DNA of 64,000 bases from an uncultured Gemmatimonadaceae bacterium (lineage in GTDB: Bacteria; Gemmatimonadota; Gemmatimonadetes; Gemmatimonadales; Gemmatimonadaceae), in assembly GCA_963817955.1 (NCBI GenBank), contig CAWFQK010000004.1, forward strand, positions 1,504,001 through 1,568,000, written 5' to 3'. Each line of letters opens with the position of its first letter. The stretch's first letter is position 1. The notes beneath the pieces were generated by a model. It did no database searches. It was not told the DNA's origin and saw only the letters and a program-made list of their open reading frames with translations. Below are positions 8,036 through 57,633 of the stretch, piece after piece. Both the position numbers and the translations under genes were made by a program.

Positions 8036-10253
8036 TCAAAAGCGAAAACGACGGTAGACAATGGTCGCATCGCCATCCTGAACGGACACGACGTTCGGCG
8101 GACGCGGCGGAATGGACAGGCCAGGTATCGCCGGCAGTCCAGGCATTCGCGCTGCCAATGCGAGATCGAGCGCCGCGCCCGCCGGGATCGATAGCCTCAC
8201 GATGGTACCGGTATCCGGCACGGCCCAGTACTGCATGAGCCACTCGGGTGACCGGTACCGGTATCTGGTGGGATCCACCACGCGCCCGTCGATCGCCGAT
8301 GCCAGAACATGCACACGCGGAGCGTGCATGACGACTACCGTGTTGCCGCGCGGCACTGTCACACGCACTGTCACGCTCCGCACTCCGCTCACGAGGCTGT
8401 CGCCGATCATCACCGCATTCGGCCCCGGAAGCGGCACCACCGGCACCCTCCGGCCGAAAAAAGTCGCCGAGCGCTCGGTCACCTGCCTCATCCATCCGGA
8501 TGTTGGCCCGATAGGCCCAACCGCGTTGCGCATCCAGTCGCTGCGCACGCCTGACGCTGGGGCGAGCCAGGCTTCGCCGGAGTCGGCATTCTCGGCGTAG
8601 ATCAACGACGCGGGAGTTGGGTGCGCCGGACTGTCGTGCACCACGAACACGCCGATCGCGGCCAGAACGACCGCGCCCAGCGCGACCCACGGCGCGCCAA
8701 ACCAGCGCGCGTCGCCCGCGATCAACGCCATCAGGGGCGCGAGCAGCAGAACGATGAGCGACACGATCAATGCGAGCGCAATCGCGCCGGTGGCGAAGAC
8801 ACCGAGCATCACGACGCTTACGCCGTACGAAAGTCCAGCGAGGATGAGCACCGTCACCGCAGCCGCGATCCACGCCAGAATTCTGCTCGGCCTCAGTGCA
8901 GCGGCCGCGGCGAACAGCAATGGCCACACAAAGAGGTAGCTCGCTCCGGGAGCGCGCGCGCTCACGGCGAGCGCGAGCACCAACCACATCACGAGCGCCC
9001 CGGCGTGCAGGCCACGCAAATTGGACCATCGCCGGCCAATCGAAAGACCGCCCAAGGTGATCGCAATGACGAGTAGCACCAACGCCAGAGCATAGATCCC
9101 GCTCCATCGCGCCGGACCCACGGATCGCAGGGTAACGGCCGCTGCGACAGCGGTCGATATCACGACGGAGCCAACGGAGACGAGCACTCCGGTGAGCACA
9201 CCGCGCCGCACGCGGTATACGACGCCGCCCACGAGCACGAACGCGAGGAACGCGAGTGGCAGTGCGGCGCCCACCGGGTAGTAGACGAGTCCGATGACGG
9301 GAAGATCGAAGAACACGGCATCGCCAGTCACGGGCCGAGGCAGCGCGCCGTTCGCCAAGGTCGTTCGCCACGGCGAGCATCTGGAGTCCGTGGTGCTGCA
9401 CACTGCCGGGATTGAGATACGCGACCGCGTCGTTGCTGGTGTGGTAGCGCTCCACTCCACTGGCGAACGCGAAGTTGAGCGCAGGTAGCCCGAGTTGCGC
9501 GAACTCGGAGAGGTCGGTGTCGTTCGGCAGTACGCGGTAGACGGTGGTGAACACCGATCCGGCCGTGACGTCGCCCGCTGTGCGCAGTGCGCGTGCGGCG
9601 TCGAGATTACCAGGACCGGTCTCGAACATGAACGATCGGCCGCTCGTGCCCCTGGCCTCGAAGTTGAGGACGACCGCGACATCCTTCGCCCACGGATGCT
9701 CGCGCACGAATGCCGCGGCTCCGAGCAATCCCGCCTCTTCACCGTCGGTGAAGAGCGCGATTACGTTGTGCTCGAGCGGTTCCTTGCGTGCTCGGAGTGC
9801 GCGCAGCGTCTCGAGCAGCGCACCGACACCGGCGCCGTCGTCTGCCGCCGCCGGACTGGCGCCGACGCCGTCATAGTGCACCATCAGGAGCACGGCCTTG
9901 CCTGCCTCCTTTCCCGGCAGCAGCGCGACGATGTTCTGCACGCGTCCCGCCTCCGGATATCGGGTGCCGATGCCCGTCGCCACCTGCAGCTTTGGCGCGA
10001 GCCCGAGCGCCGTCAACTGGCCCATGATGTAGTCGCGCACCCGATCGTGATCGGCCATACCCATCGCATGCGGGCGTACCGCGATCTGGTCCACGTGGCG
10101 CATCGCGCGTTCGGCCGAAAAGACATTGTCCGGCGCGCTCGCGGGAACCGGGGCAGGCGGTCTGGCGACACGGAGCACCGAGAGGATGCAAAGAACGATC
10201 AGCGCGGCGGCACTGCTGAGGCGAGAGAGCATGGGTAGCGGGACACGGGACAC
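8036..10253 (-). pseudogene. M28 family membrane metallopeptidase, frameshifted near 9360 (pseudogene or sequencing error)
   Basis: N-half has 'HYDGV...AADDGAGV...FTDGEEAGLLGA...LNFEARG...YHTSND'; multi-TM C-half continues in another frame ('TLANGALPRPVTGDAVFFDLP'). Confidence 0.8.
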
Positions 10254-10268
10254 GGGACGACGACGCCC

Positions 10269-12256: not shown

Positions 12257-13597
12257 TTACTTGGACTTGCCTGCGGGCTTGGCCGGCTTGGCCGGCTTGG
12301 CCGGCTTGGCCGCCGCCTTCGTGGCGGGTTTGGCCGTGCCTGTCGCATCGATGAATACCTTGTTCTCGCCCTCCCACACAAACTTCACATTTGCGCTCTT
12401 CTCCACTTCGTTGATCGCCTGGCGCGAGGAGTCGAGTGATGCCTGAACCGATGCGTCACGATCGAGCAGCTTCGAATCGGGAACCTTGATGTCGAGGTTA
12501 TACCAGCGGGCGAGCTGGGCCATCACGTCCCGCAACTGCTTGTGCGAGACGGTGACGTTCCCGTCTACCCAGCCGAACCCTTCCGCCACTTGCTCGGGCG
12601 TCGGCGCCTTCATACTAGTAGGGTCCACGAGCAGCGATTGATTGGCCGGTACGACATTGGTCTGTTTTCCCGCCTTCACCGTCACCGACCCCTCGCGCAC
12701 CTGCACCATCACGCCGCTGTCGTTTGGATACGCCGAGATGTTAAAGCTGGTTCCCGTCGCAATGAAATGCATGTGCTTGGCGACGACATGGAACGGCAGT
12801 TTCTGGCCCGGTGCAACCTGGAAGCTCGCTGACCCTTCCACCCGTAGCGCGCGAATCTTTGTCGGGAACCCGTCCGCAATGGAGATCTTCGTTTCGGGCC
12901 CAATACGCATCTTCGTGCCGTCGGCGAGCGTCACGCTGCCGATCTGCCCATAGCTCGACGAAATCGGCTGAATTCCAGACGCACTCACCGCGGAGAGTAT
13001 GGCGTCGTCTTCGCCCAGCCGATCCACATACCAGACGACAGCCACCGACAACGCGATTGCCAGGACGGCCATGGTAATAGGCAGCGCCCACGACTTTTTC
13101 TTTGCGATGGACTTCATGTGCGCGGCAGCCTCATGCCGCCCGGTCGCTGCCACGGCAGCGTGCGTCTCCGATGCGGCCTTGCCGTCGTCATGAATCGCCT
13201 GCGACACCTGCGACCACGACCGGGCAGCATCCTCTCCTGTCGATGCCCCTTCGCGTCCGGCTTGACCGGTTTCCCGGCCGCCCTTCGTTCCGAAGCGCTG
13301 TGCCGCTGCGCGGCGGCTAACGGCGCGTACGGACCCACTATGGATCTGATCGGCTAGAAAGGACTTGAGTTGTTCGGGTGTGCCAATGGTCGCGCGCTGA
13401 CGCCAGGCATTGATGAACGCTGCCTCGACGACACGGGACGCATGCGAATCCGCATCGCCGAGCTGGCTTCGCGCGCTGGCAACGTAAGCGATGTACTCGG
13501 CGTCGAACACGCGCTTGAGCGCCTGTTCATCACTGAGCAGCGGGGTGAGAGGAGATCCAGCCAGGGCACCGCCGCGTGGGGGAACACTCGTCGACAT
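12257..13597 (-). CDS. FecR-domain anti-sigma/sensor with N-terminal ECF sigma region-2-like domain
   Basis: FecR motifs 'GQIGSVTLADGTKMRIGPET', 'ATGTSFNISAY', 'VREGSV', C-terminal 'GWVDG...LRDVMAQLARWYN'; one TM helix; N-terminal sigma2-like pattern. Confidence 0.8.
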   Translation of the reverse strand: MSTSVPPRGGALAGSPLTPLLSDEQALKRVFDAEYIAYVASARSQLGDADSHASRVVEAAFINAWRQRATIGTPEQLKSFLADQIHSGSVRAVSRRAAAQRFGTKGGRETGQAGREGASTGEDAARSWSQVSQAIHDDGKAASETHAAVAATGRHEAAAHMKSIAKKKSWALPITMAVLAIALSVAVVWYVDRLGEDDAILSAVSASGIQPISSSYGQIGSVTLADGTKMRIGPETKISIADGFPTKIRALRVEGSASFQVAPGQKLPFHVVAKHMHFIATGTSFNISAYPNDSGVMVQVREGSVTVKAGKQTNVVPANQSLLVDPTSMKAPTPEQVAEGFGWVDGNVTVSHKQLRDVMAQLARWYNLDIKVPDSKLLDRDASVQASLDSSRQAINEVEKSANVKFVWEGENKVFIDATGTAKPATKAAAKPAKPAKPAKPAGKSK

Positions 13598-13873
13598 GCA
13601 GCCTCCAAGGCTCTCAAATGTTGTCCTTATGATGGCACGAAACCCGACGACTGCAAGGGCGGAATTCCCGCAGGTGCGTCGGGAACAGCCGGAAACGCCG
13701 GTGAGGGCCGTCCGGGACTAGGCAGGCGAACCCCGGGACTTCGAGGAATTCTGCCGTTTTGGTGGACGGCCAATCCGCTTTCCTACGCGTGTGGCACTCT
13801 GCCACTTGCTCACCAGGACGGTGTTGCCGGTTTCCAAGACCAGATGGCCATCTTTTGCCAGATGGCCTCTTAT

Positions 13874-13925
13874 TTAACGCAGAGAACTGCAGTTCTCTTG
13901 CAGTTCTCTGCGACCTTTGCGTTAA
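13874..13925. repeat. Nested palindrome
   Basis: Perfect 18-bp palindrome agagaactgcagttctct (13881-13898); cgcagagaactgca/tgcagttctctgcg; outer ttaacgca/tgcgttaa. Confidence 0.8.
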
Positions 13926-13944
13926 AAGCTGTTCTATCGGCCAC

Positions 13945-13973
13945 AGAGATCCTTCGCTTCGCTCAGGATGACA
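13945..13973 (+). repeat. REP-like palindromic repeat (AGAGATCCTTCGCTTCGCTCAGGATGACA)
   Basis: Identical copy at 28194-28222; reverse-complement copy at 55632-55660 with 1 mismatch. Confidence 0.85.
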
Positions 13974-14210
13974 GGCCTTCGCTCAGGTGATTGTCATGGA
14001 ACGCTGGGAGGAGTACGCGTGTGCCGCAGCACCGGCTACAAGACTGATGTAGACTCACGGGTTCCGCGAGCGGGTGGCTCGGGTGACGCGCCGCATGCGG
14101 GACGCGCAAGCCTCGGTCTTTCGATTGCGCACCGCCTCGCCAGATTGCAGCGAGTAGCGTGACGCAGCCCAACCTGGGCACTCTTCCGCCGGCCAACCGA
14201 GGCTCGGACC

Positions 14211-14573
14211 ATGATCTACGAACATCGCCGGCAACCACCCATTTCCCGCGCGCGGTTTCTCAGGCGTCTCCTCCGGCACGGAGGGTATGCCGGCGCACTC
14301 ATTCTGGGATCGGTCTGCATCGGCACGCTGGGATATCACGCGCTGGCGTCGCAGTCCTGGATTGACAGTTTCCTCAACGCGTGCATGCTGCTCGGGGGCA
14401 TGGGGCCGGTCGGCGACATTGCGACGAATGCGGGGAAGATCTTCGCCGCGCTGTTCGCGCTGTATTCCGGACTCGTGTTCCTGATCGCTGCCGCCGTCCT
14501 GTTCACGCCAGTGTTGCACCGGGTGCTGCACCGGTTCCATTGGGAGGCGGACCGGGAGAGCGGGGAGAAGTAA
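14211..14573 (+). CDS. Small two-TM membrane protein (ion-channel-like family)
   Basis: 'SWIDSFLNACMLLGGMGPV...GKIFAALFALYSG' pore-like pattern, 120 aa. Confidence 0.75.
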   Translation: MIYEHRRQPPISRARFLRRLLRHGGYAGALILGSVCIGTLGYHALASQSWIDSFLNACMLLGGMGPVGDIATNAGKIFAALFALYSGLVFLIAAAVLFTPVLHRVLHRFHWEADRESGEK

Positions 14574-14584
14574 TCGTTATCTCC

Positions 14585-14691
14585 TTGGGTTCCGGGGTGT
14601 TGACTGGCTGGTTGTCGCTGGCTGCTCCGTACCGGTCGGCCCACCGGTCGGAGAGTTTCGAGTTTCCAGTTGTGCGTTGTGCGTTGTGCGT
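14585..14691 (+). repeat. Solo copy of the four-helix-bundle-element terminal repeat
   Basis: Aligns with 49040-49146, including ctggctgctccgt..cggtcggcccaccggtcgg.gagtttcgagtttccagttgtgcgttgtgcg; lies between convergent genes. Confidence 0.85.
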
Positions 14692-14697
14692 TTTTGA

Positions 14698-15138
14698 CTA
14701 AGGCTTCTTCGGCGTCATCTTCATCTTCATCATCATTTCGTGATTGCCGCACGCGGCCATGGCGTCTTTGCCCTGGGCATTCATCTTGGCCATTTCCGCC
14801 TTGTGATCGGCGACGGATTTGTCGAACGTCGCCTGCTGTGCCGGCGTCAGCACGAGACGCATGGCCGTGAACGTCTTGTTCATCGATGCTTCCATTTCGC
14901 GCATGCGTACACTGTCCAGCGCCTTCATCTCCGCCATGTGCTCGGCGCGCAGCTTGGCGAACGCGCTGTCCTGTTTGGCCGTGAGATGCAGATTCGTGGG
15001 TTCCATGGGGCACGACATGGCCGACATTCCCTTCATGTCGTGGCTCATCATGGGCTTTGTGGACTTGCCGGGCATCTGCGCCGAGGCGCTGGCGGCGCTG
15101 CAGACGAGCAAGGCGGAAACAATTGAGAGACGTAGCAT
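14698..15138 (-). CDS. Periplasmic Met-rich helical protein (Spy/CpxP-like)
   Basis: Signal peptide; 'LHLTAKQ' and 'VLTPAQQ' LTxxQ motifs. Confidence 0.65.
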   Translation of the reverse strand: MLRLSIVSALLVCSAASASAQMPGKSTKPMMSHDMKGMSAMSCPMEPTNLHLTAKQDSAFAKLRAEHMAEMKALDSVRMREMEASMNKTFTAMRLVLTPAQQATFDKSVADHKAEMAKMNAQGKDAMAACGNHEMMMKMKMTPKKP

Positions 15139-15170
15139 GCCTACTCCGTGTTGGACGATTTGGAAGCAGG

Positions 15171-15743
15171 CTACCTTGGGCCGCCATTCAACACAATCGG
15201 GGTTTGCACCACCTTGATCGTGAGATACCGGAGCGAATCGCCGGTCGCGATGCGGAACTGATGCGGCACTCCGGCCGGCACGACAAATAGGTCGCCGGTC
15301 GCCAAGGGCTGCGTCGCACCGCCGACGATCGTGCCTCCGCGGTGCTCTCCGCCTGGTTCGACACGGGCGCCGTCCAGGCGTCCACCCACCAGGATCGATC
15401 CTGTACCGGCTTGCACGATCGCCACGTCGATCCAGTGATCGTGCATCTCGGGTTCGCCGGTCGTGATGCGACGCACCACCGTCGGCCGAAACGTCGGATG
15501 TGCCCGCAACACGTGCGCGGAGGTGCTGCCGCGTGCGAGTGAGTCAGCGACGTGCGCGAGAAACGCCGCCGAATAGAACTCGATGCTCCCGGCGACAGGC
15601 GGATCGACGGGAGACACCTTGCTTGGCTGCGACGCCGCCGCGACACCGCCTTGCTGCGCCGGAGTCCGCTCGTCGTGTTGCGTCCTGCCGCACGCTGCCG
15701 TGGCGACCACCATCAACAGAAACGCTCTCGTGTGCACAGTCAT
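15171..15743 (-). CDS. Cupin-domain lipoprotein
   Basis: Lipobox TAAC; 'PEMHDHWID...GDLFVVPAGVPHQF'. Confidence 0.75.
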   Translation of the reverse strand: MTVHTRAFLLMVVATAACGRTQHDERTPAQQGGVAAASQPSKVSPVDPPVAGSIEFYSAAFLAHVADSLARGSTSAHVLRAHPTFRPTVVRRITTGEPEMHDHWIDVAIVQAGTGSILVGGRLDGARVEPGGEHRGGTIVGGATQPLATGDLFVVPAGVPHQFRIATGDSLRYLTIKVVQTPIVLNGGPR

Positions 15744-15756
15744 GAGTCTCCGCGTC

Positions 15757-16944
15757 CTACCGCATGTTCCCCGTGTGTCCGAGCGAGAATCGCCCTGGCT
15801 GCGGCCACACACAGAGGCCGTGGGGCTCGACGCCCACCTTGATGCGATCGATCAGTTGGCCGGTCTCGGTATCCAGTACATAGACCTCCTGATCGTATCG
15901 GCCCGACAGCCAGAGCTGCTTGCCGTCGGCGCTCACGTTCCCCATGTCAGGGCTGCCGCCATGCGGGATAGGCCACGTCGCAACGATACGTTGTGTGTTT
16001 GGATCGAGCACGGTAACGGACCCTGGCCCGCGTTTGCCGCCCAAGACGTTGTTCCAGCCGCGGTTGGTAATATAGATCGGCTTGCCGCTGCGTCCGGTCA
16101 CGATACCGTGGGTGCCCTTTCCAGTCTTGATGAAACCGATCTGTTTGAACGCGTACGGGTCAATGAGATGCACGCCGTCCGCTTTCATGTCGGCCACGTA
16201 GAACACGCGACCATCGGGCGAGGAGCGAACGTCCTGCGGCATCGCACGGCTTCCAATCTCCGATGCCAGGCGCAGATAGGCAACGGGCGCGCGCGATGCG
16301 AGATCGAACTTCACCACCTGGCCCGAGAACTCGCAACTCGCAATTGCGTACTTGTTGTCCGCGGTGAAGTCCAGGTGGTTGAGTCCGCCGCATTCGACGT
16401 GGACGGACTGGATGAGCTTCATCGTTTTGGGATCGCGAAAGTCGAAGCGGTCGCGCTTCTCGGCGATCACCATCGCCATGCTCCCGTCAGGCGTGAAGTA
16501 CATGTTGTACGGATCATCCACTGGCACGGGCGCGCCGAACTGTGCCGTGATCGGATCGATGGGGATGACGGTATTGCCGTCGTTGTCGAGCACCCACAGC
16601 GTGGACAGGTCGTACGATGGCACGACGTGCTGTGGCAGCTTCCCCACTGGCACGGTGCGCAGGATCTTGCGCGTCGCCTCGTCGATGATCGTGACGCTCT
16701 TCGAGCGCGAGTTGGGAACGTAGACGAGCGATCGCGCGCGCGCCGCAATTGGGGCGATGTCTCCCGCCGCGGTCGCTGCATAGATATTGGGCACTGCCGT
16801 ACCCGATGCGGAATCGAGCGCCGGCGCCCGCGAGAGATCGTACGTCGAGTTGTACGACACGGCGGTTGAATCCTTGCGACATGCGGAGACCGCCAGAGTC
16901 GCACAACCAAGCGCTACGGCCTTGAGACACGAGACACGAGACAC
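15757..16944 (-). CDS. YVTN/YncE-family beta-propeller lipoprotein
   Basis: Lipobox VSAC; repeats 'VYVPNS..SVTIID', 'VGKLPQHV', 'VGVEPHG'; GTG start lies within a heptamer array. Confidence 0.8.
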   Translation of the reverse strand: MSRVSCLKAVALGCATLAVSACRKDSTAVSYNSTYDLSRAPALDSASGTAVPNIYAATAAGDIAPIAARARSLVYVPNSRSKSVTIIDEATRKILRTVPVGKLPQHVVPSYDLSTLWVLDNDGNTVIPIDPITAQFGAPVPVDDPYNMYFTPDGSMAMVIAEKRDRFDFRDPKTMKLIQSVHVECGGLNHLDFTADNKYAIASCEFSGQVVKFDLASRAPVAYLRLASEIGSRAMPQDVRSSPDGRVFYVADMKADGVHLIDPYAFKQIGFIKTGKGTHGIVTGRSGKPIYITNRGWNNVLGGKRGPGSVTVLDPNTQRIVATWPIPHGGSPDMGNVSADGKQLWLSGRYDQEVYVLDTETGQLIDRIKVGVEPHGLCVWPQPGRFSLGHTGNMR

Positions 16945-16956
16945 GGGACACGGGAC
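16922..16956 (-). repeat. 7-bp tandem array (GTGTCYC)n, about 5 units
   Basis: gagacac/gggacac units read directly. Confidence 0.9.
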
Positions 16957-17026
16957 TTGAGACGCGGATCAACGGACACGGGACGGTCAGGTTGTCAGCA
17001 AATGCTAAACCGGATCAGCACTGGTA

Positions 17027-17087
17027 TCTCGTGTCTCGTGTCTCGTGTCCCGTGTCCCGTGTCCCGTGTCCCGTGTCCCGTGTCTCA
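17027..17087 (+). repeat. 7-bp tandem array (GTGTCYC)n, about 8-9 units, inverted relative to 16922-16956
   Basis: (tctcgtg)3(tcccgtg)5. Confidence 0.9.
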
Positions 17088-28032: not shown

Positions 28033-28250
28033 AGAGACACGGGACACGAGACACGGGACACGGGACACGGGGGTGGGACACGAGACACGGGACACGGGAA
28101 ACTCACAACGCACAACTCACAACTGGAAACTCGAAACTCGCCGACCGGTGGGCCGACCGGTACGGAGCAGCCAGCGACAACCAGCCGGTCGATAGAGATC
28201 CTTCGCTTCGCTCAGGATGACACGCCCTCGCTCAGGATGACAGGCATCGC
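28033..28250 (-). repeat. Composite repeat: (GTGTCYC)n array + terminal-repeat core + REP-like palindrome(s)
   Basis: Reverse complement of 55624-55841 in module order and sequence, including the gggggtgggacac interruption and the caggcatcgc tail. Confidence 0.9.
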
Positions 28251-28255
28251 AGGTG

Positions 28256-28310
28256 GTCAGTTGTCAGTTGTCAGTTGTCAGTTGTCAGTTGTCAGTTGTC
28301 AGTTGTCAGT
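28256..28310 (+). repeat. 7-bp tandem array (GTCAGTT), 7 perfect units plus 1 partial
   Basis: Read directly. Confidence 0.95.
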
Positions 28311-28336: not shown

Positions 28337-28405
28337 TGGCTCGCTGGCCACTATCGCCGGTCGGCGAGGTTCGGGTGTCCAGTTGTGAGTTGTGAGTTGT
28401 GAGTT
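28337..28405 (+). repeat. Degenerate copy of the terminal-repeat core with (GTTGTGA)3
   Basis: tcgctggc...ccggtcggcgaggttcgggtgtccagttgtgagttgtgagttgtgag. Confidence 0.65.
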
Positions 28406-33908: not shown

Positions 33909-34150
33909 CAAGCGATCGGGACGACGGGTGACTGTGATCAGTCATCAGTGCGTGGGTTGTCAGTCATCAGTGACTGAGGACCCCGACAGCCGTCGATCGG
34001 GCGAACAGACCCGCGAACATCCACCACCAAAAAAGACGCGCGGCCGCGAAAGCCGGCCCGAGAGAGAACCCGTCGCGTTGCCGCGCGACTGATGACTGAC
34101 AACCGTTTTACTGATGACTGAAGACAGTCACCCGCTGTCCCGATCGCTTG
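33909..34150. repeat. Long imperfect inverted repeat (63-bp arms, 116-bp spacer); MITE-like or structured RNA
   Basis: 33909-33971 matches the reverse complement of 34088-34150 at 54/63 positions; each arm has two cagtcatcagt modules. Confidence 0.8.
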
Positions 34151-34313
34151 ACCTGGCGTAACGCGCCGGACCCAGCCGCGGTCGTTCGCGCCGTTACCGC
34201 CGCCAGCGCTGAACCTCGGACAGAGCAGTATTAGGCCGCGTGCTCGTCCCGGAATACGTCAAGGACTACGTGTCCTTGAACCAGTTTGCGGCGTAGGCGG
34301 CACAGGAGGATTC

Positions 34314-34729
34314 ATGAGCAAGAGCAACAAGACCATGATTGAAGTCCAGGGCACCTCCGTCGCTGTGCTTTCGCAGAATCAGCAAGACATCATATGCCTG
34401 ACGGACATTGCCAAGTTCAAGAACCCGGATCACCCGGACGATGTGATCCGCAACTGGCTGCGCGGCCGCAACACGGTGGAGTTTCTCGGGGTCTGGGAAC
34501 GGCTCAACAACCCGAGTTTTAATCCCGTCGAATTCGACGGGATTAAAATGCAGACGGGTCTGAACAGCTTTGTCCTCACGCCGAAGCAGTGGATCGAGAG
34601 GACCGGAGCGGTGGGCATCACATCAAAGGCCGGTCGCTACGGCGGCACGTACGCCCATAAGGACATCGCCTTCGAGTTCGCCGCCTGGGTCTCGGTAGAG
34701 TTCAAACTCTACCTCATCAAGGAATTCCA
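34314..34729 (+). pseudogene. KilA-N domain protein, 5' part (interrupted)
   Basis: SD aggagg; 'ICLTDIAK...IRNWLR.RNTVEFLGVWE..NNP.F...GRYGGTYAHKDIAFEFAAWVSVEFKLYLIKEF'. Confidence 0.9.
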
Positions 34730-36323
34730 TCTCGGGTGACATCTGGGCCGGATCGCGGAGTTCGCGAAACACTTCGGTGCTGATTCACACACGTCACTCG
34801 GCGGGGCGGTGTGCCGAGAGATTCGGATCACTTCGGAGCGACCGGAGCCGGCCTGCGAGTCGTGTGCACCGGCACACCAGCTGGCGGCCCTGATTCCACC
34901 TGGTGCGTGTCCACGGGGGGCATCCTGGAACGGAGGCTCCACGGGAGGATATAGGACGCCAGCAAAATGCTGTCTCGGTGTTGACTGAGTACGTAGAGCC
35001 GTTCCCGGTTGCCTGCTACCCGAAGCGCAGATCGCGGGAGCACCATCGTCTGGAGATACGCTCCACTATCAGAATAGAGATCGACCATACGACCCGCGCC
35101 CGCTGAGCGACCGGAGAACAGGAGAGCAACCCCTCCAGGAAAGCTCGTTGCGTCGAGCGTGTAGACCGACGCTGACCGCGTCAGGCGGTCCCAGAGCCGC
35201 TGATACCAAGAATCAGTTGACACTGGCTCGATGTACGGTCCGAGCGGACGCACCGCGGTATCAGCAACGACCACAACGCTTCGCATGCGCGAGGCCCATA
35301 GGACACACGCGCCGCCCAGCGAGCCGCCGAATCGTAAGTCCTGCCACTTGACGGAGCGGCCGTCCACGTACCCCGCGGGGAACGACAACGAGCGAGTTGC
35401 GAACGGCCGTTTCAGATCATGGATGAAGACAGTGCCCGCCTACGTGTCATCGAGGAATGCGATGCTACCGCTGTCGACTACGCAAGCCGTGCGTACGGTT
35501 CCCCGGTCGCTGAGAGTCGCGATGACCTTGATGTAACCTGAGACGTCTCTACTGACGATGCTGCCCGTTTCAGGCACGAGATACCAAGTGACCCCGCCAC
35601 GGGTAACGCCGGCAATGTCAGAGGGAATGCCGAGCGCTGGATTGACACCGGCGGCCACGATCGGGACACGTCCACCGAGCGCTGACATGTTACTGCCCGA
35701 GAGGGGCTTCTCAAGAATGACCTGAAATGCGGCGGGCGGCGACGCTTGTAGAAGAGCCGTCACACCGCCCCCAGACCGAAACGCGACGACGCTCATGCGT
35801 TGCAGATGTGGGACGAAGCGCTCCACGTAGGGCAGACGGTATTCCCACTCCATGTCCCCGAGTCCGCCGACCCGCAGCGGGCCGGAACCCCCGGTATTTG
35901 CCGTGGAGCGCGAATCATGCGTCGCTGAGCATGCGCCGAGCGCCGCCGCGACCGCGAGGACCCCTAGGATCCTGGTGACCGTGGTTGCTATCGATCTGTC
36001 CTCCGTTCTCGCCGAAGGGCCACATTGGAGGAGGCGTGAACGCCGTTTTGCCGCCTGCGACTCAGAAACGATCAATCTCGCTGTCACGGAACCGTCACCA
36101 TTGAGAAGGCGTCTAAACATGCACGGCTGATTCCAACCCTTGGGGCCGGTCTACAGGCGGCGGCCAAACAGCTCAGTGATTGGGCTACACGCCGTGCGCC
36201 AGGCTTCTGTACGCACGGCATGCACACTGGCCGCAGAGAGCTTGTTAGCCCTGAGGGCTACATATCAGTGCCACGGGGTGAAGCAAATAGTTCCTCCGAT
36301 AGAACAGTTAAACTCGAATTCCA
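34722..36323. mobile_element. 1594-bp insertion in the KilA-N gene bounded by direct repeat GAATTCCA
   Basis: GAATTCCA at 34722-34729 and 36316-36323; excision restores ...LIKEFQRLKEEE... in frame (277 aa); no transposase and no terminal inverted repeats. Confidence 0.8.
34828..36120 (-). pseudogene. Hypothetical lipoprotein (possible beta-propeller) with one internal TAG at 35440-35442
   Basis: ORFs 35440-36120 and 34828-35388 are in the same frame; lipobox LGAC; 'VDLYSDSGAYLQTMVLP' propeller-like motif. Confidence 0.55.
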
Positions 36324-36981: not shown

Positions 36982-37740
36982 TTACACCGCCGGCAACTGC
37001 GATGCCGGAGGTGTGGATGCTGCCGGCGGCGTTGCTGGCGCCGCCATACTGCCCTGCGTGGTGGCGTCCGCTTGTGCCGCGCTCGCGCGAGCGCCGATCT
37101 TGACGCCCGGCTTGTGAGCGACGCGCTTCGCTGTGGTCCATGCCGCCTGCAGGCCGGCATCGGCGCCGATCAACGGCAGCAGCAAGCCGTTGAGCACCGT
37201 GATGATGGTGCGACCACGCCGCTCCTCAGCCGCCAGGGATGCCGTCGCCCCGCTTCGGACCACGGCTTGCCCCGATCGACCATCAATGGCGTCCTGGAGC
37301 CCCTGCGCGGACGCCTGCAACCGCGCGATGAAATCCGCCGGGAGCCCGTTAGCCGTGAACACCGCCGCGTGGCGCGCCGCGGCCTCGCCCATCGCCGCCG
37401 CCGCCGCGAGCAGTCGCTCCGTCGAGACGGTCGAGCGCGGCGTGGTGAGCGAGCTAAAATCGGGAACAGCCGGTAGCCGAAGCTTCGCGATCGCCGCGAT
37501 GGGATCCATCTGGTGGATCCGCAACGCAAGGCGCAGCGCGCCCAGCTTCGACGTCTCCCCTCGGCTCGCGCGGCCACCGACCTCCTGAGCGGTGGCGGAT
37601 GCGCTGAGTTGGGTGATAGTGTCGGTCAGCTCCTGCCGAGCGGCAGAACCCAGGAGCGAGGCGAACGCCGTGGGTTGGGCATCGAGAAAGGTGTCGATGC
37701 GGCGGAGCGCTTCGAGCATACTGCCTTCGTGGTATTTCAT
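36982..37740 (-). CDS. Alpha-helical hypothetical protein (252 aa)
   Basis: SD ggagg before ATG 37740; 'LEALRRIDTFLD...MDPIAAIAK...LLAAAAAM...F...GLPADFI..L...AAW..AKRV'. Confidence 0.75.
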   Translation of the reverse strand: MKYHEGSMLEALRRIDTFLDAQPTAFASLLGSAARQELTDTITQLSASATAQEVGGRASRGETSKLGALRLALRIHQMDPIAAIAKLRLPAVPDFSSLTTPRSTVSTERLLAAAAAMGEAAARHAAVFTANGLPADFIARLQASAQGLQDAIDGRSGQAVVRSGATASLAAEERRGRTIITVLNGLLLPLIGADAGLQAAWTTAKRVAHKPGVKIGARASAAQADATTQGSMAAPATPPAASTPPASQLPAV

Positions 37741-37822
37741 GTGGCCTCCCGGCCGATGGGGCGCCGAAATGGACCTGCACCCCGACGGGCGCCCGATGCG
37801 CCGGGGTCGAAAAATGAGAGCA

Positions 37823-38730
37823 ACCGCCTCGAGCGGTTGCGGTGTGGTCTTGGGGAGTTGCGCTGTGGTCTTGAGGAGTTGCGATATCGTCTCGGAGAGC
37901 TGGGGTGTCGCCTCAGCAAGTTGCGCTGTCATCTCGGAGAGTCGGGGTGTCGCCTCAGCGAGTTGGGGTGTCGCCTCAGCGAGTTGGAGTGGCGTCTCGG
38001 AGCGTTGGAGTGCCGTCTCGCCGAGTTGGAGTCCCATGTCGACGCGTCAGGGTTCCATCTCAACGCGTTGGGATCCCGTCTCAACGCGTTGGAGTGCCAT
38101 CGCAAGGCGTTCCGATTGCGTCTCGATGAGTTAGGATTCCAGCTCGACGCGCTGGGGTGCCGCCTCTGCGAGTTGGAGTGCCGTCTCGCCGCGCTCAGCT
38201 TGTGCCTTGGCGCGTTGGAGTGCTCTCTCGCCGCACTCCGATTGTGTCTTGGGGAGTTGGAGTGCCGTCTCGATGCGTTGCGATCTCAGCTCGAGGCGCT
38301 CCGATTGCATCTCGGCAGCGGGCACTGCCGTCTCTGCACGGGCGGGTGTCGTCTCGCGGCGATGCGATGCCTGCTCTGCGCGCGAGGATCCTGGCTCAAC
38401 CCGCAGGGATCCTCGCTCGCCACGTTGCGATTCCGTCTACATCCGCAACGATCCTTGCTCGGTCCGTTGGGATTCCGTCTCGGCTCGCAACGATCCTTGC
38501 TCGGCCCGTTGGGATTCCGTCTCGGCTCGCAACGATCCTTGCTCGATCCGTTGCGATCCTATCTGGGCACGCGACGATCCCTGCTTGGCGCGTTGCAATA
38601 CCATCTCGCGGCATTGCGATGCTCGCTCGGCCCGATCGAATTCCATCTCGGCACGATCGAATTCCATCTCGGCACGATCGAATCCCGTCTCGGCCCGATC
38701 GAATTCCATCTCGACACGATCGATCCCGTC
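37823..38730. repeat. Degenerate 21-bp tandem array, about 43 units
   Basis: Phase kept throughout; approximate consensus (g/t)ccgtctcggcgcgttgcgat; + frame reads as LxxLxxx heptads. Confidence 0.9.
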
Positions 38731-38957
38731 TCGGCCCCTTCGCATTCGATCATGCCACGATCGATCCCGTCTCGATCCATTCGCATTCGATGCGTGGCAC
38801 GATCGATCCCGTCTCGCCGCCCGATCGTCCCGCGATGATCGTAGTCCTATATATTAGTTCCGAAATTGGGGGGTCAGCGCAAGGGCCAATATGACCGATT
38901 GACCAATACCGCCATGTTTTGAGCGTTTCAGCGTTAGTACTATTAGAGCGGTACGTC

Positions 38958-39001
38958 GGTCCCGTGTCCGGTGTCCCGTGTCCCGTGTCCCGTGTCCCGT
39001 G
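38958..39001 (+). repeat. 7-bp tandem array (GTGTCCC)n, about 6 units
   Basis: Read directly. Confidence 0.85.
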
Positions 39002-48978: not shown

Positions 48979-49036
48979 ACCGCGAACATACGACGAGGGG
49001 GAGGGAGAGCGGTAGAGCGCGACCCGACGTTAACGC

Positions 49037-49741
49037 GGATTGGGCTCCGGGCTCTATTCTGGCTGGATGTCGCTGGCTGCTCCGTCGCGGTCGGCCCACC
49101 GGTCGGCGAGTTTCGAGTTTCCAGTTGTGCGTTGTGCGTTGTGAGTGTTAACGGGCTGGGGTCTCACCGGTGGTGCTCAGCACCTTGTTCCGCAGACCGC
49201 AGAGCATTCGGCGCGTCTCGACTGTCATTGCGCCAAGGGCGCGCCAGTCACGTTCCTGCAGCACGTCGTACCGGTAGGCCAGCTCCAGTTCGCCCTCGAG
49301 CTCCATCGCGGACTTCACGGACATTTCCAGAAAGCGCGCGAGTTCTTTCTGCGTGCTCGCGCCGCAACCCTCGACGATGTTATTCCCCACCGATTCGGCC
49401 GCCGAGACCAGCTGCGCTTTCAGTTCCGAATAGCCCTGCTTTGGAAACCGCGTCGTAGCCCTTCGGACTTCGAGGGCCAGAGCGACAGCCTTGTTCCAAA
49501 CTCTGAGCCGGCGAAAGTCCTGCATGCGCGAAAGCTGCGCGGCCGCAGCCAAGGGCGCAGCATCGTACCGTTTCCAGCCGGTCCACGCTGTCTCGCCAAG
49601 CTCACCCATCAGACCGGTTTGTACCGTTAACACTCACAACGCACAACTCACAACTGGAAACTCGAACCTCGCCGACCGGTGGGCCGACCGCTACGGAGCA
49701 GCCAGCGACATCCAGCCAGAATAGAGCCCGGAGTCCAATCC
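49037..49741. mobile_element. Putative element: four-helix-bundle gene between 118-bp inverted repeats
   Basis: 49037-49154 matches the reverse complement of 49624-49741 with 4 mismatches; ACGC directly flanks both ends. Confidence 0.7.
49148..49525 (-). CDS. Four helix bundle protein (S23/23S-IVS/Avd-like family)
   Basis: 'MQDFRRLRVWNKA..L...FP......L..QL..AA.SV..NIVEGCG.....E..RFL..S..S..EL'. Confidence 0.92.
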   Translation of the reverse strand: MQDFRRLRVWNKAVALALEVRRATTRFPKQGYSELKAQLVSAAESVGNNIVEGCGASTQKELARFLEMSVKSAMELEGELELAYRYDVLQERDWRALGAMTVETRRMLCGLRNKVLSTTGETPAR

Positions 49742-49818
49742 ACGCCCTCGCTCTCGCCGCTTCAGTCGGCGCACCTCGAGTGGCCAGTTGCGCGTTGTGC
49801 GCTGTGTGTTGACGTCGA

Positions 49819-55623: not shown

Positions 55624-55841
55624 GCGATGCCTGTCATCCTGAGCGGAGCGAAGGATCTCTGTAGGCCAGCTGGATGTCGCTGGCTGCTCCGTAGCGGTCG
55701 GCCCACCGGTCGGCGAGTTTCGAGTTTCCAGTTGTGAGTTGTGCGTTGTGAGTGTCCCGTGTCTCGTGTCTCGTGTCCCGTGTCTCGTGTCTCGTGTCTC
55801 GTGTCCCGTGTCCCGTGTCCCGTGTCCCACCCCCGTGTCTC
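55624..55841 (+). repeat. Composite repeat: REP-like palindrome + terminal-repeat core + (GTGTCYC)11
   Basis: Palindrome 55632-55660, core 55669-55751, heptamers 55752-55828. Confidence 0.9.
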
Positions 55842-57402: not shown

Positions 57403-57432
57403 GACATTCGCATGGTCAGGTGAGACTCCGCC

Positions 57433-57633
57433 GGATTGGACTCCGGGTCGTCGACCGGCCGCTCCTGGACCACCTTCCAGGTGCACCGCCGGCTGGATGT
57501 CGCTGGCTGCTCCGTCGCGGTCGGCCCACCGGTCGGCGAGTTTCGAGTTTCCAGTTGTGAGTTGTGCGTTGTGAGTGTCCCGTGTCTCGTGTCCCCGTGT
57601 CTCGTGTCTCATGTCTCATGTCTCATGTCTCAT
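57433..57633 (+). repeat. Solo terminal-repeat copy plus heptamer array
   Basis: ggattggactccggg at 57433, core from 57492, then gtgtcyc/atgtctc units. Confidence 0.88.

Follow-up and report, generated by a model that had tools for sequence, protein, structure and literature searches.

Is a small gene that stands between two long inverted repeats an ordinary gene with repeats for neighbours, or is it one part of an element that is inserted as a whole? This question is raised by a stretch of 64,000 nt from an uncultured Gemmatimonadaceae bacterium (assembly GCA_963817955.1, contig CAWFQK010000004.1), which is called the window in the following. In it, a gene for a four-helix-bundle protein of the family PF05635 (23S_rRNA_IVP) is enclosed by inverted-repeat arms of 121 nt. 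A sequence-only reading of the window had proposed a mobile, invertible or RNA-excised cassette without a transposase. This interpretation is partly supported: the unit is recurrent and insertable, no transposase was found in the window and the link to the intervening sequences (IVS) of 23S rRNA is sound, whereas the proposed target duplication and the inversion are not supported. We consider the locus to be a cassette of the IVS type that lies outside rRNA and unites gene, leader and arms, and assign this reading a probability of roughly 0.55. For decades, 23S rRNA has been known to contain intervening sequences; to our knowledge, there is no settled account of their origin or of the role of their open reading frame (ORF).

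Structure of the unit in the window

The repeat search returned two arms at 49034-49154 and 49624-49744, each 121 nt long, 96% complementary and separated by 469 nt. Between the arms, 116 of the 121 columns are Watson-Crick pairs; the five mismatches comprise three transversions, one mismatch of the G-T type and one of the A-C type. The arms of 118 nt with four mismatches described earlier are real and extend 3 nt further at each outer end, where the fifth mismatch sits (CGC vs CGT). The complete unit is compact (711 bp) and consists of a G+T-rich arm, a leader of about 98 nt, a PF05635 gene of 125 amino acids (AA) and the complementary arm, which begins at the stop codon. It is located between an aminotransferase gene and a GT2 glycosyltransferase gene (both according to Pfam). 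The parts are:

49624 to 49744, minus strand: upstream (5') arm in gene orientation, G+T-rich on the sense strand, the inner ~40 nt being phased heptamers (repeat search, Tandem Repeats Finder (TRF) and arm alignment)
49526 to 49623, minus strand: leader of 98 nt from the upstream arm to the ATG, with a -10-like box CAGCTT at 49537-49532, 6 nt before the ATG
49148 to 49525, minus strand: coding sequence of the 125-AA four-helix-bundle protein (PF05635 / TIGR02436), with the stop codon 7 nt inside the downstream arm
49034 to 49154, plus strand: downstream (3') arm in gene orientation, A+C-rich on the sense strand (repeat search and TRF)

The longest ORF between the arms (49148-49633, minus strand) is the only long ORF there which has a coding-type composition. 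The ATG at 49525 was taken as start codon and the coding sequence was set to 49148-49525 (125 AA), because the homologues, of which 43 were aligned, begin at a conserved MQD[YF]RRLRVW. The best database match of the protein has the same length of 125 AA and is 95% identical. Three further features had been recognized beforehand and are borne out, namely a single four-helix-bundle gene between the arms, which matches both PF05635 and TIGR02436, a stop codon within the left arm (49148-49150, 7 nt inside) and phased heptamers at the inner arm ends (TRF period 7 at 49124-49143 and 49632-49655). The transcript had also been expected to fold with the gene as a loop. In the computed fold of the sense transcript (49760-49020), the arms are indeed predicted to pair as one long stem, with an energy of -468.5 kcal/mol and a z-score of -29.65 compared to 20 shuffles.

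No 23S rRNA gene surrounds the unit, and Rfam shows no family above its gathering score in the 64-kb window; a scan of the window for tRNA genes was negative as well. Among the 49 other ORFs of the window, no match to a transposase, an integrase or a reverse transcriptase was obtained at E ≤ 1e-5, which confirms, for the window, the absence of a transposase claimed before.

Recurrence in Gemmatimonadaceae

A protein-profile scan yielded 80 loci, all from Gemmatimonadaceae or Gemmatimonadota metagenome-assembled genomes (MAGs), of which 65 had full flanks of 450 nt. Each locus received the score of the best inverted repeat whose two arms enclose the gene; as controls, 231 positions at a shift of 2 or 3 kb within these loci were used, most of them coding. 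A straddling inverted repeat of at least 40 bits was present in 54/65 loci (at least 60 bits in 35 and at least 100 bits in 18; median 63.5 bits) and in 0/231 controls (median 20.2, maximum 34.6 bits). Many of the 65 loci are mutual orthologues, hence they were counted by sequence cluster, too. A member with a repeat of at least 40 bits was found in 36 of 40 clusters; three of the remaining four are cut by contig ends near the gene and the fourth scores 36 bits. Contig ends closer than 450 nt to the gene occur in 15 of the 80 loci and many database homologues are situated on contigs of 1-2 kb, as expected of repeats that break assemblies.

The geometry relative to the start and stop codons is fixed across the 61 units compared. 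The leader, measured from the end of the upstream arm to the start codon, has a median length of 77 nt (interquartile range 72-98), and the stop codon lies inside the downstream arm or at most 10 nt from it in 43 units. Median values are 629 nt for the unit, 67 nt for the arm (range 31-230 nt) and 86% for the arm identity, so the 121-nt arms of the window unit with their 96% are among the longest and best matched. The arms are lineage-specific in sequence, whereas gene and leader are homologous between loci; the window arm had no blastn match at E ≤ 1e-3 in the 80 related loci. Autocorrelation at lag 7 was 0.41 in both arms compared to 0.27 in controls, which show the codon period. Lag 7 was best in 36 of 55 upstream arms, and the G+T content of the 5' arm exceeded 0.5 in 45 of 55 units. 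Additional copies of a unit's arms were found elsewhere in some relatives, and two loci contain a gene-less hairpin (7264-7340/7365-7442 in L005 and 2237-2301/2315-2362 in L043) built of the arms of a nearby unit, which is 3.3 kb or 1.5 kb away. These hairpins have a unit-like polarity and an apex of 14-25 nt.

Plasmids, other phyla and an rRNA gene

In a tblastn search against plasmids, the family was found in Cyanobacteriota, Gemmatirosa, Azospirillum and Riemerella. The same architecture is present on plasmids of Cyanobacteriota, Bacteroidota, Pseudomonadota and Gemmatimonadota. For 19 matching regions with flanks of 200 nt, a straddling inverted repeat of at least 27 bits was found in 16/19 and of at least 35 bits in 14/19, compared to 2/74 and 1/74 shifted controls, respectively. 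The arm-gene-arm arrangement proposed from the window is a recurrent unit and not a one-off (54/65 loci vs 0/231 controls and 16/19 plasmid loci vs 2/74).

Most plasmid arms are plain tandem heptamers in inverted orientation; the heptamer differs from locus to locus and is purine- or G-rich upstream, with the complement downstream. Three exceptions on Nostoc plasmids (L089, L090 and L091) keep the downstream array only. In L089 and L091, an annotated ISL3-type transposase gene ends directly upstream, where the upstream array would stand; in L090, the 3' end of the same transposase gene was read in the sequence, without an annotated feature. Because only the downstream array remains at these loci, the upstream array may be a target of insertion sequences.

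One plasmid unit (L093; Azospirillum lipoferum 4B plasmid AZO_p2, record 13189-15945) is located inside a large-subunit (LSU) rRNA gene (Rfam RF02541, 2165 bits) and, therefore, is a classical 23S rRNA intervening sequence. Its inverted, heptamer-like arms score 43.7 bits and its architecture is that of the window unit. As far as it is described in PMC4990558, the IVS of Coxiella likewise has inverted repeats and heptamers. The link to 23S rRNA intervening sequences drawn earlier is, thus, apt. The 23S rRNA gene of AZO_p2 with its ORF-bearing intervening sequence has no feature in the gene table of the plasmid.

Further plasmid units are found inside operons. On cyanobacterial plasmids, two units separate cas6 from cas4 and a third separates cas10/cmr2 from cmr3 (L082, L083 and L095). 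Another unit stands antisense between two genes for ribonucleotide reductase subunits (L084), one is antisense between two secretion-system genes (L081), and one is located between a gene for an AAA-family ATPase and a gene for a ParB-family partition protein (L086). In the portion of PMC3936711 that concerns the family, 18 such genes in cas loci are treated as having a cas-associated function. Since the units stand between the cas6/cas4 and cas10/cmr3 genes, the reported association suggests insertion into operon spacers and not a Cas function.

Presence and absence at orthologous spacers

Two independent comparisons among relatives show the unit to be present or absent as a whole. The spacer occupied by the unit in L030 is a gene-to-gene gap of ~30 nt without gene or arms in L017, L022, L034 and L037 (all Gemmatimonadaceae). 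The second comparison concerns a syntenic operon on the plasmids pNPUN02 (L098) and pNsp_c (L099), whose flanking proteins are 95.9% and 91.7% identical. The two plasmids carry units in different, adjacent spacers, and each of these spacers measures 3 nt and is repeat-free in the other plasmid. The two unit proteins are 36.5% identical and the heptamers differ. In each comparison, arrays are found where the gene is and are missing where it is not. Since the arm-gene-arm block as a whole is either there or missing at orthologous spacers, the unit behaves as an insertion unit, and the mobility of the whole unit suggested before is backed in this respect. Most copies are old: one position is common to 12 loci and the gene is in place in 89 syntenic pairs.

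A bare cassette which inserts into the apex of a resident palindromic repeat was considered and dropped as a general mechanism, because the empty sites carry no repeat. A target-site duplication of 4 bp was rejected also. The tetramer ACGC is present outside both ends of the window unit (49033-49036 and 49742-49745), as had been noted; its interpretation as a target duplication does not exceed chance level. A direct repeat of 4 nt or more that lies no further than 5 nt from the outer ends is present in 13/39 units, compared to 30% of controls with mismatched flanks; none reaches 6 nt, and the ACGC of the window is one such 4-nt case. In appearance, the unit is unlike transposons of the cut-and-paste type, which have terminal repeats and duplicate their target.

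Conservation and pairing of the arms

For an alignment of 11 orthologous loci from different MAGs, the mean pairwise identity was calculated per region:

Leader: 52%
Upstream arm: 76%
Codon position 1: 83%
Codon position 2: 89%
Codon position 3: 53%
Spacer after the gene: 44%
Downstream arm: 81%
Downstream flank: 53%

Among these loci, the arms are conserved like coding sequence. Arms and protein are considered to be under purifying selection, because the arms and the codon positions 1 and 2 are far above the third positions and the spacer.

RNAalifold recovers the arm-arm stem with 44 pairs, in which 93.8% of the alignment cells are paired, compared to 25-39% with a slid partner. Changes on both sides were seen in six pairs, a number reached by 2/500 shuffles, and the covariation score of 0.120 (vs 0.096) was reached by 5/500 shuffles. 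Given the caveats of the tools for related sequences, covariation in 11 loci lends modest support to pairing. The alignment also shows a nearly continuous outer helix of ~18 bp. Most columns with at least 90% conservation belong to triplets, AGT in the upstream and ACT in the downstream arm, which are 7-8 nt apart and separated by variable spacers.

The protein

The window protein matches PF05635 with an E-value of 1.3e-24 (86.9 bits, cut-off 33.8) and the NCBIfam entry TIGR02436 'four helix bundle protein' with 85.4 bits (cut-off 24). An AlphaFold2 model has four helices with a mean predicted local distance difference test (pLDDT) value of 94.2. Using Foldseek, this model was aligned to 2gsc (Xanthomonas XCC0516; template modelling (TM) scores 0.88/0.95) and to the best chain of 2rld (TM 0.76/0.88). 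A profile search against PDB sequences gave 2gsc as well (E 6.2e-15). Avd (4dwl), a protein of diversity-generating retroelements (DGRs), was aligned with TM 0.74/0.85 at an E-value of 0.04 and 7% sequence identity, and entries of the DGR ribonucleoprotein were among the matches, too. The closest solved homologue was deposited as five chains, and a title cited in the reference list of PMC3936711 describes it as five four-helix bundles. By analogy with the five-chain homologue entries and this title, the protein may form a homopentameric ring, and homology suggests a pentamer-forming relative of the nucleic-acid-binding Avd. Among the defence-system profiles of PADLOC, there was no match for the protein.

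Expression signals and proposed mechanism

The leaders of one representative for each of 38 clusters were aligned on the start codon. T is conserved at position -7 in 71% and at -6 in 50%, A at -11 in 47% and at -10 in 45%; further conserved positions are G at -38, T at -36, AA at -47/-46 and G at -58. In the window, the hexamer CAGCTT spans -12 to -7 and looks like a -10 box suited to leaderless mRNA. No Shine-Dalgarno sequence is evident in the window leader, and a strict scan found no sigma-70 promoter in the window unit. From the positional profile of the 38 leaders we infer that the gene has its own promoter inside the loop, a point missed in the sequence-only reading. Rough gene calls based on composition place the gene antisense to its two neighbours in 21/55 loci and co-directional with both in seven, the window included. 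The antisense position in these 21 loci argues for an own promoter.

We propose that the unit inserts rarely into intergenic spacers, operons or rRNA and is kept thereafter. The block would be an insertion unit, either selfish or domesticated, which is mostly old and vertically inherited. Its symmetric arms would allow a transcript crossing the unit in either direction to fold into a long stem, and RNase III might cut this stem and remove the cassette at the RNA level, as is the case for rRNA intervening sequences. Through such removal, the host would not be blocked by a cassette in rRNA or in a tight operon spacer. The gene would probably be transcribed from the promoter in the loop as a leaderless or near-leaderless mRNA. 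Removal by RNase III would fit the insertions in tight operons in either orientation and the lack of a strand-specific wobble bias.

Evaluation of the cassette and of other explanations

Several points weigh against the cassette as proposed, some of them against its mobility and others against the RNA stem. The case of L030 could be a deletion instead of an insertion. In the search for an empty site at the window locus itself, tblastn with the four neighbouring proteins gave no match in any fetched locus. The closest protein is a single orthologue (95%), near-identical paralogues were not found, and the single orthologous position shared by 12 loci points in the same direction; mobility here is old or rare. 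The arms also occur apart from the gene, namely in five solo copies in the window with 89-99% identity. The controls for the inverted repeats are mostly coding and not intergenic; the effect is large nevertheless. The RNA stem is not directly supported. In the 11 orthologous loci, the inner arm pairs only via the conserved phased triplets with free spacers between them, a pattern which fits sequence recognition as well as pairing. Arm mismatches of the 61 units have no G-U wobble bias on the sense strand (138 of the G-U type vs 165 of the A-C type, p = 0.135), and transversions (366) outnumber transitions. At best, this result is neutral for an RNA stem of the sense strand, and it may be negative; a bias would likewise be absent if the stem were needed on both strands. 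Finally, a promoter inside the loop would mean that the mRNA of the gene does not contain the upstream arm.

The main rival to the cassette is an operator or binding array, which we regard as a possible explanation of clearly lower probability. Here, the phased repeats would be sites for the ring protein, one triplet per subunit with a spacing of 7 nt; the flanking sites would serve autoregulation or packaging, and solo arms and pure arrays would be further targets. The AGT/ACT triplets every 7-8 nt with variable spacers in the 11 orthologous loci are what such an array predicts, and the triplet phase is found in the window arm, too, and runs on into heptamer arrays at the solo copies. However, the sites are putative, and AGT is complementary to ACT, so conserved triplets in both arms fit pairing equally well. 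Each lineage having its own heptamer would agree with recognition by a cognate protein, but is explained without recognition by co-inheritance of gene and arms. Arm mismatches without a wobble bias are consistent with binding sites, as are the five chains of the closest solved homologue and the resemblance of the fold to Avd, which is part of the DGR ribonucleoprotein. On the other hand, the outer ~80 nt of the window arm are not heptameric, and only one PF05635 gene stands in 64 kb beside 15 period-7 rows of TRF. The data do not separate a stem cut by RNase III from binding sites, and both could hold.

Each of the remaining explanations (a conventional transposon derivative, a chance arrangement of gene and repeats, an invertible switch) conflicts with a test result. 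In a non-autonomous transposon similar to a miniature inverted-repeat transposable element (MITE) or a mobile insertion cassette, the arms would be termini for a transposase acting in trans and the gene would be a passenger. The inverted termini, a unit without transposase, the several arm copies of the window at 89-99% identity, the gene-less hairpins made of the same arms in L005 and L043 and the cases of presence and absence would all suit such an element. We nevertheless consider it improbable: the signal of a target duplication is missing (13/39 vs 30% of controls), it is the supposed passenger that is conserved, with arms that are unrelated from one lineage to the next, arms of 31-230 nt built from heptamers are unlike transposase-binding ends, and the solo copies are single arms and not pairs.

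Coincidence, i.e. an ordinary small gene between two copies of a generic intergenic repeat resembling repetitive extragenic palindromic (REP) sequences or bacterial interspersed mosaic elements (BIMEs), is very unlikely. It could account for the five solo copies and several heptamer arrays in other spacers of the window, none of which is beside a PF05635 gene, and for single arms that fold no better than shuffles (z -1.11 to +1.05); it fails on the enrichment with the family (54/65 vs 0/231 and 16/19 vs 2/74), on the fixed geometry to start and stop codons and on the absence of arms from empty sites. An invertible switch, in which recombination between the arms flips the gene, was among the earlier proposals and is the least probable of all, as the gene is inverted in 0/89 syntenic locus pairs and flipping would not switch expression with the promoter-like box standing inside the loop, even though arms of 121 nt at 96% identity are long enough for homologous inversion.

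Relation to known systems

The window unit resembles the rRNA intervening sequences of Leptospira, Coxiella and others, as far as these are described, in that a protein of the same family is encoded in the loop, an inverted-repeat stem is terminal, heptamers are found by the ORF and a recombinase is missing. For Coxiella, PMC4990558 describes a terminal stem of 28 bp cut by RNase III, a family ORF in the loop, tandem heptamers in variable number upstream of the ORF, and decay of this ORF. Unlike an rRNA IVS, the window unit lies between an aminotransferase and a glycosyltransferase gene, with no rRNA gene in the window. Compared to the account of Coxiella, the arms are longer (121 bp vs 28 bp) and also occur solo, and the ORF family is under purifying selection in the relatives of the window unit (83%, 89% and 53% identity by codon position). 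A preprint mentions a family ORF in rRNA insertions of bacteria of the candidate phyla radiation (CPR).

With Avd of the DGRs the protein shares the four-helix-bundle fold, and according to the part of PMC10053308 on neighbouring genes, PF05635 is the commonest family next to DGRs. In contrast to a DGR, no reverse transcriptase was detected among the 49 window ORFs and no template/variable repeat was found; direct repeats close to the gene are exclusively copies of the arm. MITEs, mobile insertion cassettes and Correia-type elements are, like the unit, small, bounded by inverted repeats, free of a transposase and intergenic, and Correia elements are processed by RNase III. The unit differs from MITEs and Correia-type elements by the missing target duplication, by lineage-specific, heptamer-phased arms and by a gene which is the conserved part.

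Intergenic arrays of period 7 are known as short tandemly repeated repetitive (STRR) sequences of cyanobacteria, as the GGGAATC repeats of Xanthomonas and as TAACTGA repeats. PMC4692102 gives 70-75 convergently oriented pairs for the Xanthomonas heptamers, and PMC4679880 reports TAACTGA arrays for Cyanobacteria and Bacteroidetes. The arrays described here differ from these repeats, as published accounts portray them, by bracketing a PF05635 gene in inverted orientation. Term counts for 'S23', 'four helix' and 'intervening sequence' were zero in the text of PMC4692102, which deals with heptamers of Xanthomonas and Nostoc, and of PMC4679880, which deals with those of Beggiatoaceae and Cyanobacteria. 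In open-access full text, no literature was found that ties PF05635 genes outside rRNA to flanking inverted heptamer repeats.

With the present loci, the same package of ORF, stem and heptamers is shown outside rRNA, in ordinary spacers and inside operons (cas6-cas4, cas10-cmr3, ribonucleotide reductase genes, AAA-ATPase gene/parB), where empty sites can be compared. The idea of the IVS as a mobile element becomes testable in carriers that are culturable and harmless, and 23S_rRNA_IVP genes in cas loci may be insertions and not cas-associated functions. Moreover, a defined protein family is tied to period-7 intergenic repeats, whose abundance in bacteria is noted without explanation in the relevant sections of PMC4692102 and PMC4679880. 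A more far-reaching view, which we offer tentatively and think rather doubtful in its full extent, is that PF05635 proteins and period-7 repeats form a two-part system across phyla. A ring protein would read the phased triplets of the arrays beside its own gene, the units with a gene would be autonomous, and gene-less hairpins, solo arms and free arrays, including the cyanobacterial heptamers, would be non-autonomous derivatives or additional targets; what is known as rRNA intervening sequences and as 23S_rRNA_IVP genes of cas operons would then be just the most conspicuous insertions of such elements.

Arm copies and other repeats in the window

The arm is a dispersed repeat, which had been overlooked before. 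A 22-nt word of the arm occurs eight times in the window with at most 3 mismatches, while 0 are expected from 100 shuffles. The copies besides the two arms of the unit are:

49745 to 49814, plus strand: degenerate third partial arm copy (74% over 65 nt in the repeat search, 78.8% over 52 nt in blastn), abutting the outer end of the upstream arm
14585 to 14694, plus strand: solo arm copy (89% over 110 nt), which fills the spacer of two convergent genes; no PF05635 gene nearby
28101 to 28186, minus strand: solo arm copy (95% over 86 nt), preceded by a heptamer array at 28036-28099
28357 to 28404, plus strand: partial arm copy (90% over 48 nt)
55669 to 55755, plus strand: solo arm copy of 87 nt (98% to the left arm, 99% complementary to the right arm), entering an 11-copy heptamer array at 55752-55828
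57491 to 57578, plus strand: solo arm copy (99% over 88 nt), entering a heptamer array at 57575-57631

The copies at 28101-28186 and 28357-28404 form a pair with a polarity opposite to that of the unit and a 7.9-copy heptamer array (28256-28310) in between. For the copy at 57491-57578, the outer terminus is found additionally at 57432-57447, set apart by an insertion of ~40 nt. Solo copies are intergenic and mostly continue into tandem heptamer arrays; the TRF output for the window has 15 rows of period 7. A function of solo arms as independent hairpins or terminators was rejected, with z-scores of -1.11 to +1.05 compared to shuffles. Neither tblastn nor the family hidden Markov model (HMM) applied to six-frame ORFs detected a second PF05635 gene in the 64-kb window. 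The comparison of arm-gene-arm units with solo arms, which had been suggested as a check, gives one PF05635 unit and five solo copies within the window. A pattern of 26 specified arm bases had 0 matches in a one-genome-per-species collection, which does not contain the source genome.

A hairpin-forming module of ~43 nt was observed at 13945-13987, 28194-28236 and 55629-55660 (reverse strand), with two of the copies being 95% identical. At two of the three sites it adjoins the outside of an arm copy, forming a composite repeat of 151 nt (28075-28225 vs 55629-55779, 93%). Pure heptamer arrays without an arm are present at 16923-16983, 17027-17087, 10239-10258 and 38959-39001. The first two are an inverted pair (61 nt, 79%, 43 nt apart) between divergent genes.

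Two repeats in other parts of the window were seen in addition. A long run of 21-nt tandem repeats (also detected as 42, 63 and 84 nt) covers 37814-38830 within the ORF 37477-38838, which matches the coiled-coil family DUF7310 weakly, below the cut-off. An inverted repeat of 63 nt (33909-33971 / 34088-34150, 86%, 116 nt apart) is located directly upstream of a KilA-N domain gene (34152-34739); the ORFs neighbouring this locus (33909-34739) are without a Pfam match and it may be the remnant of a mobile element.

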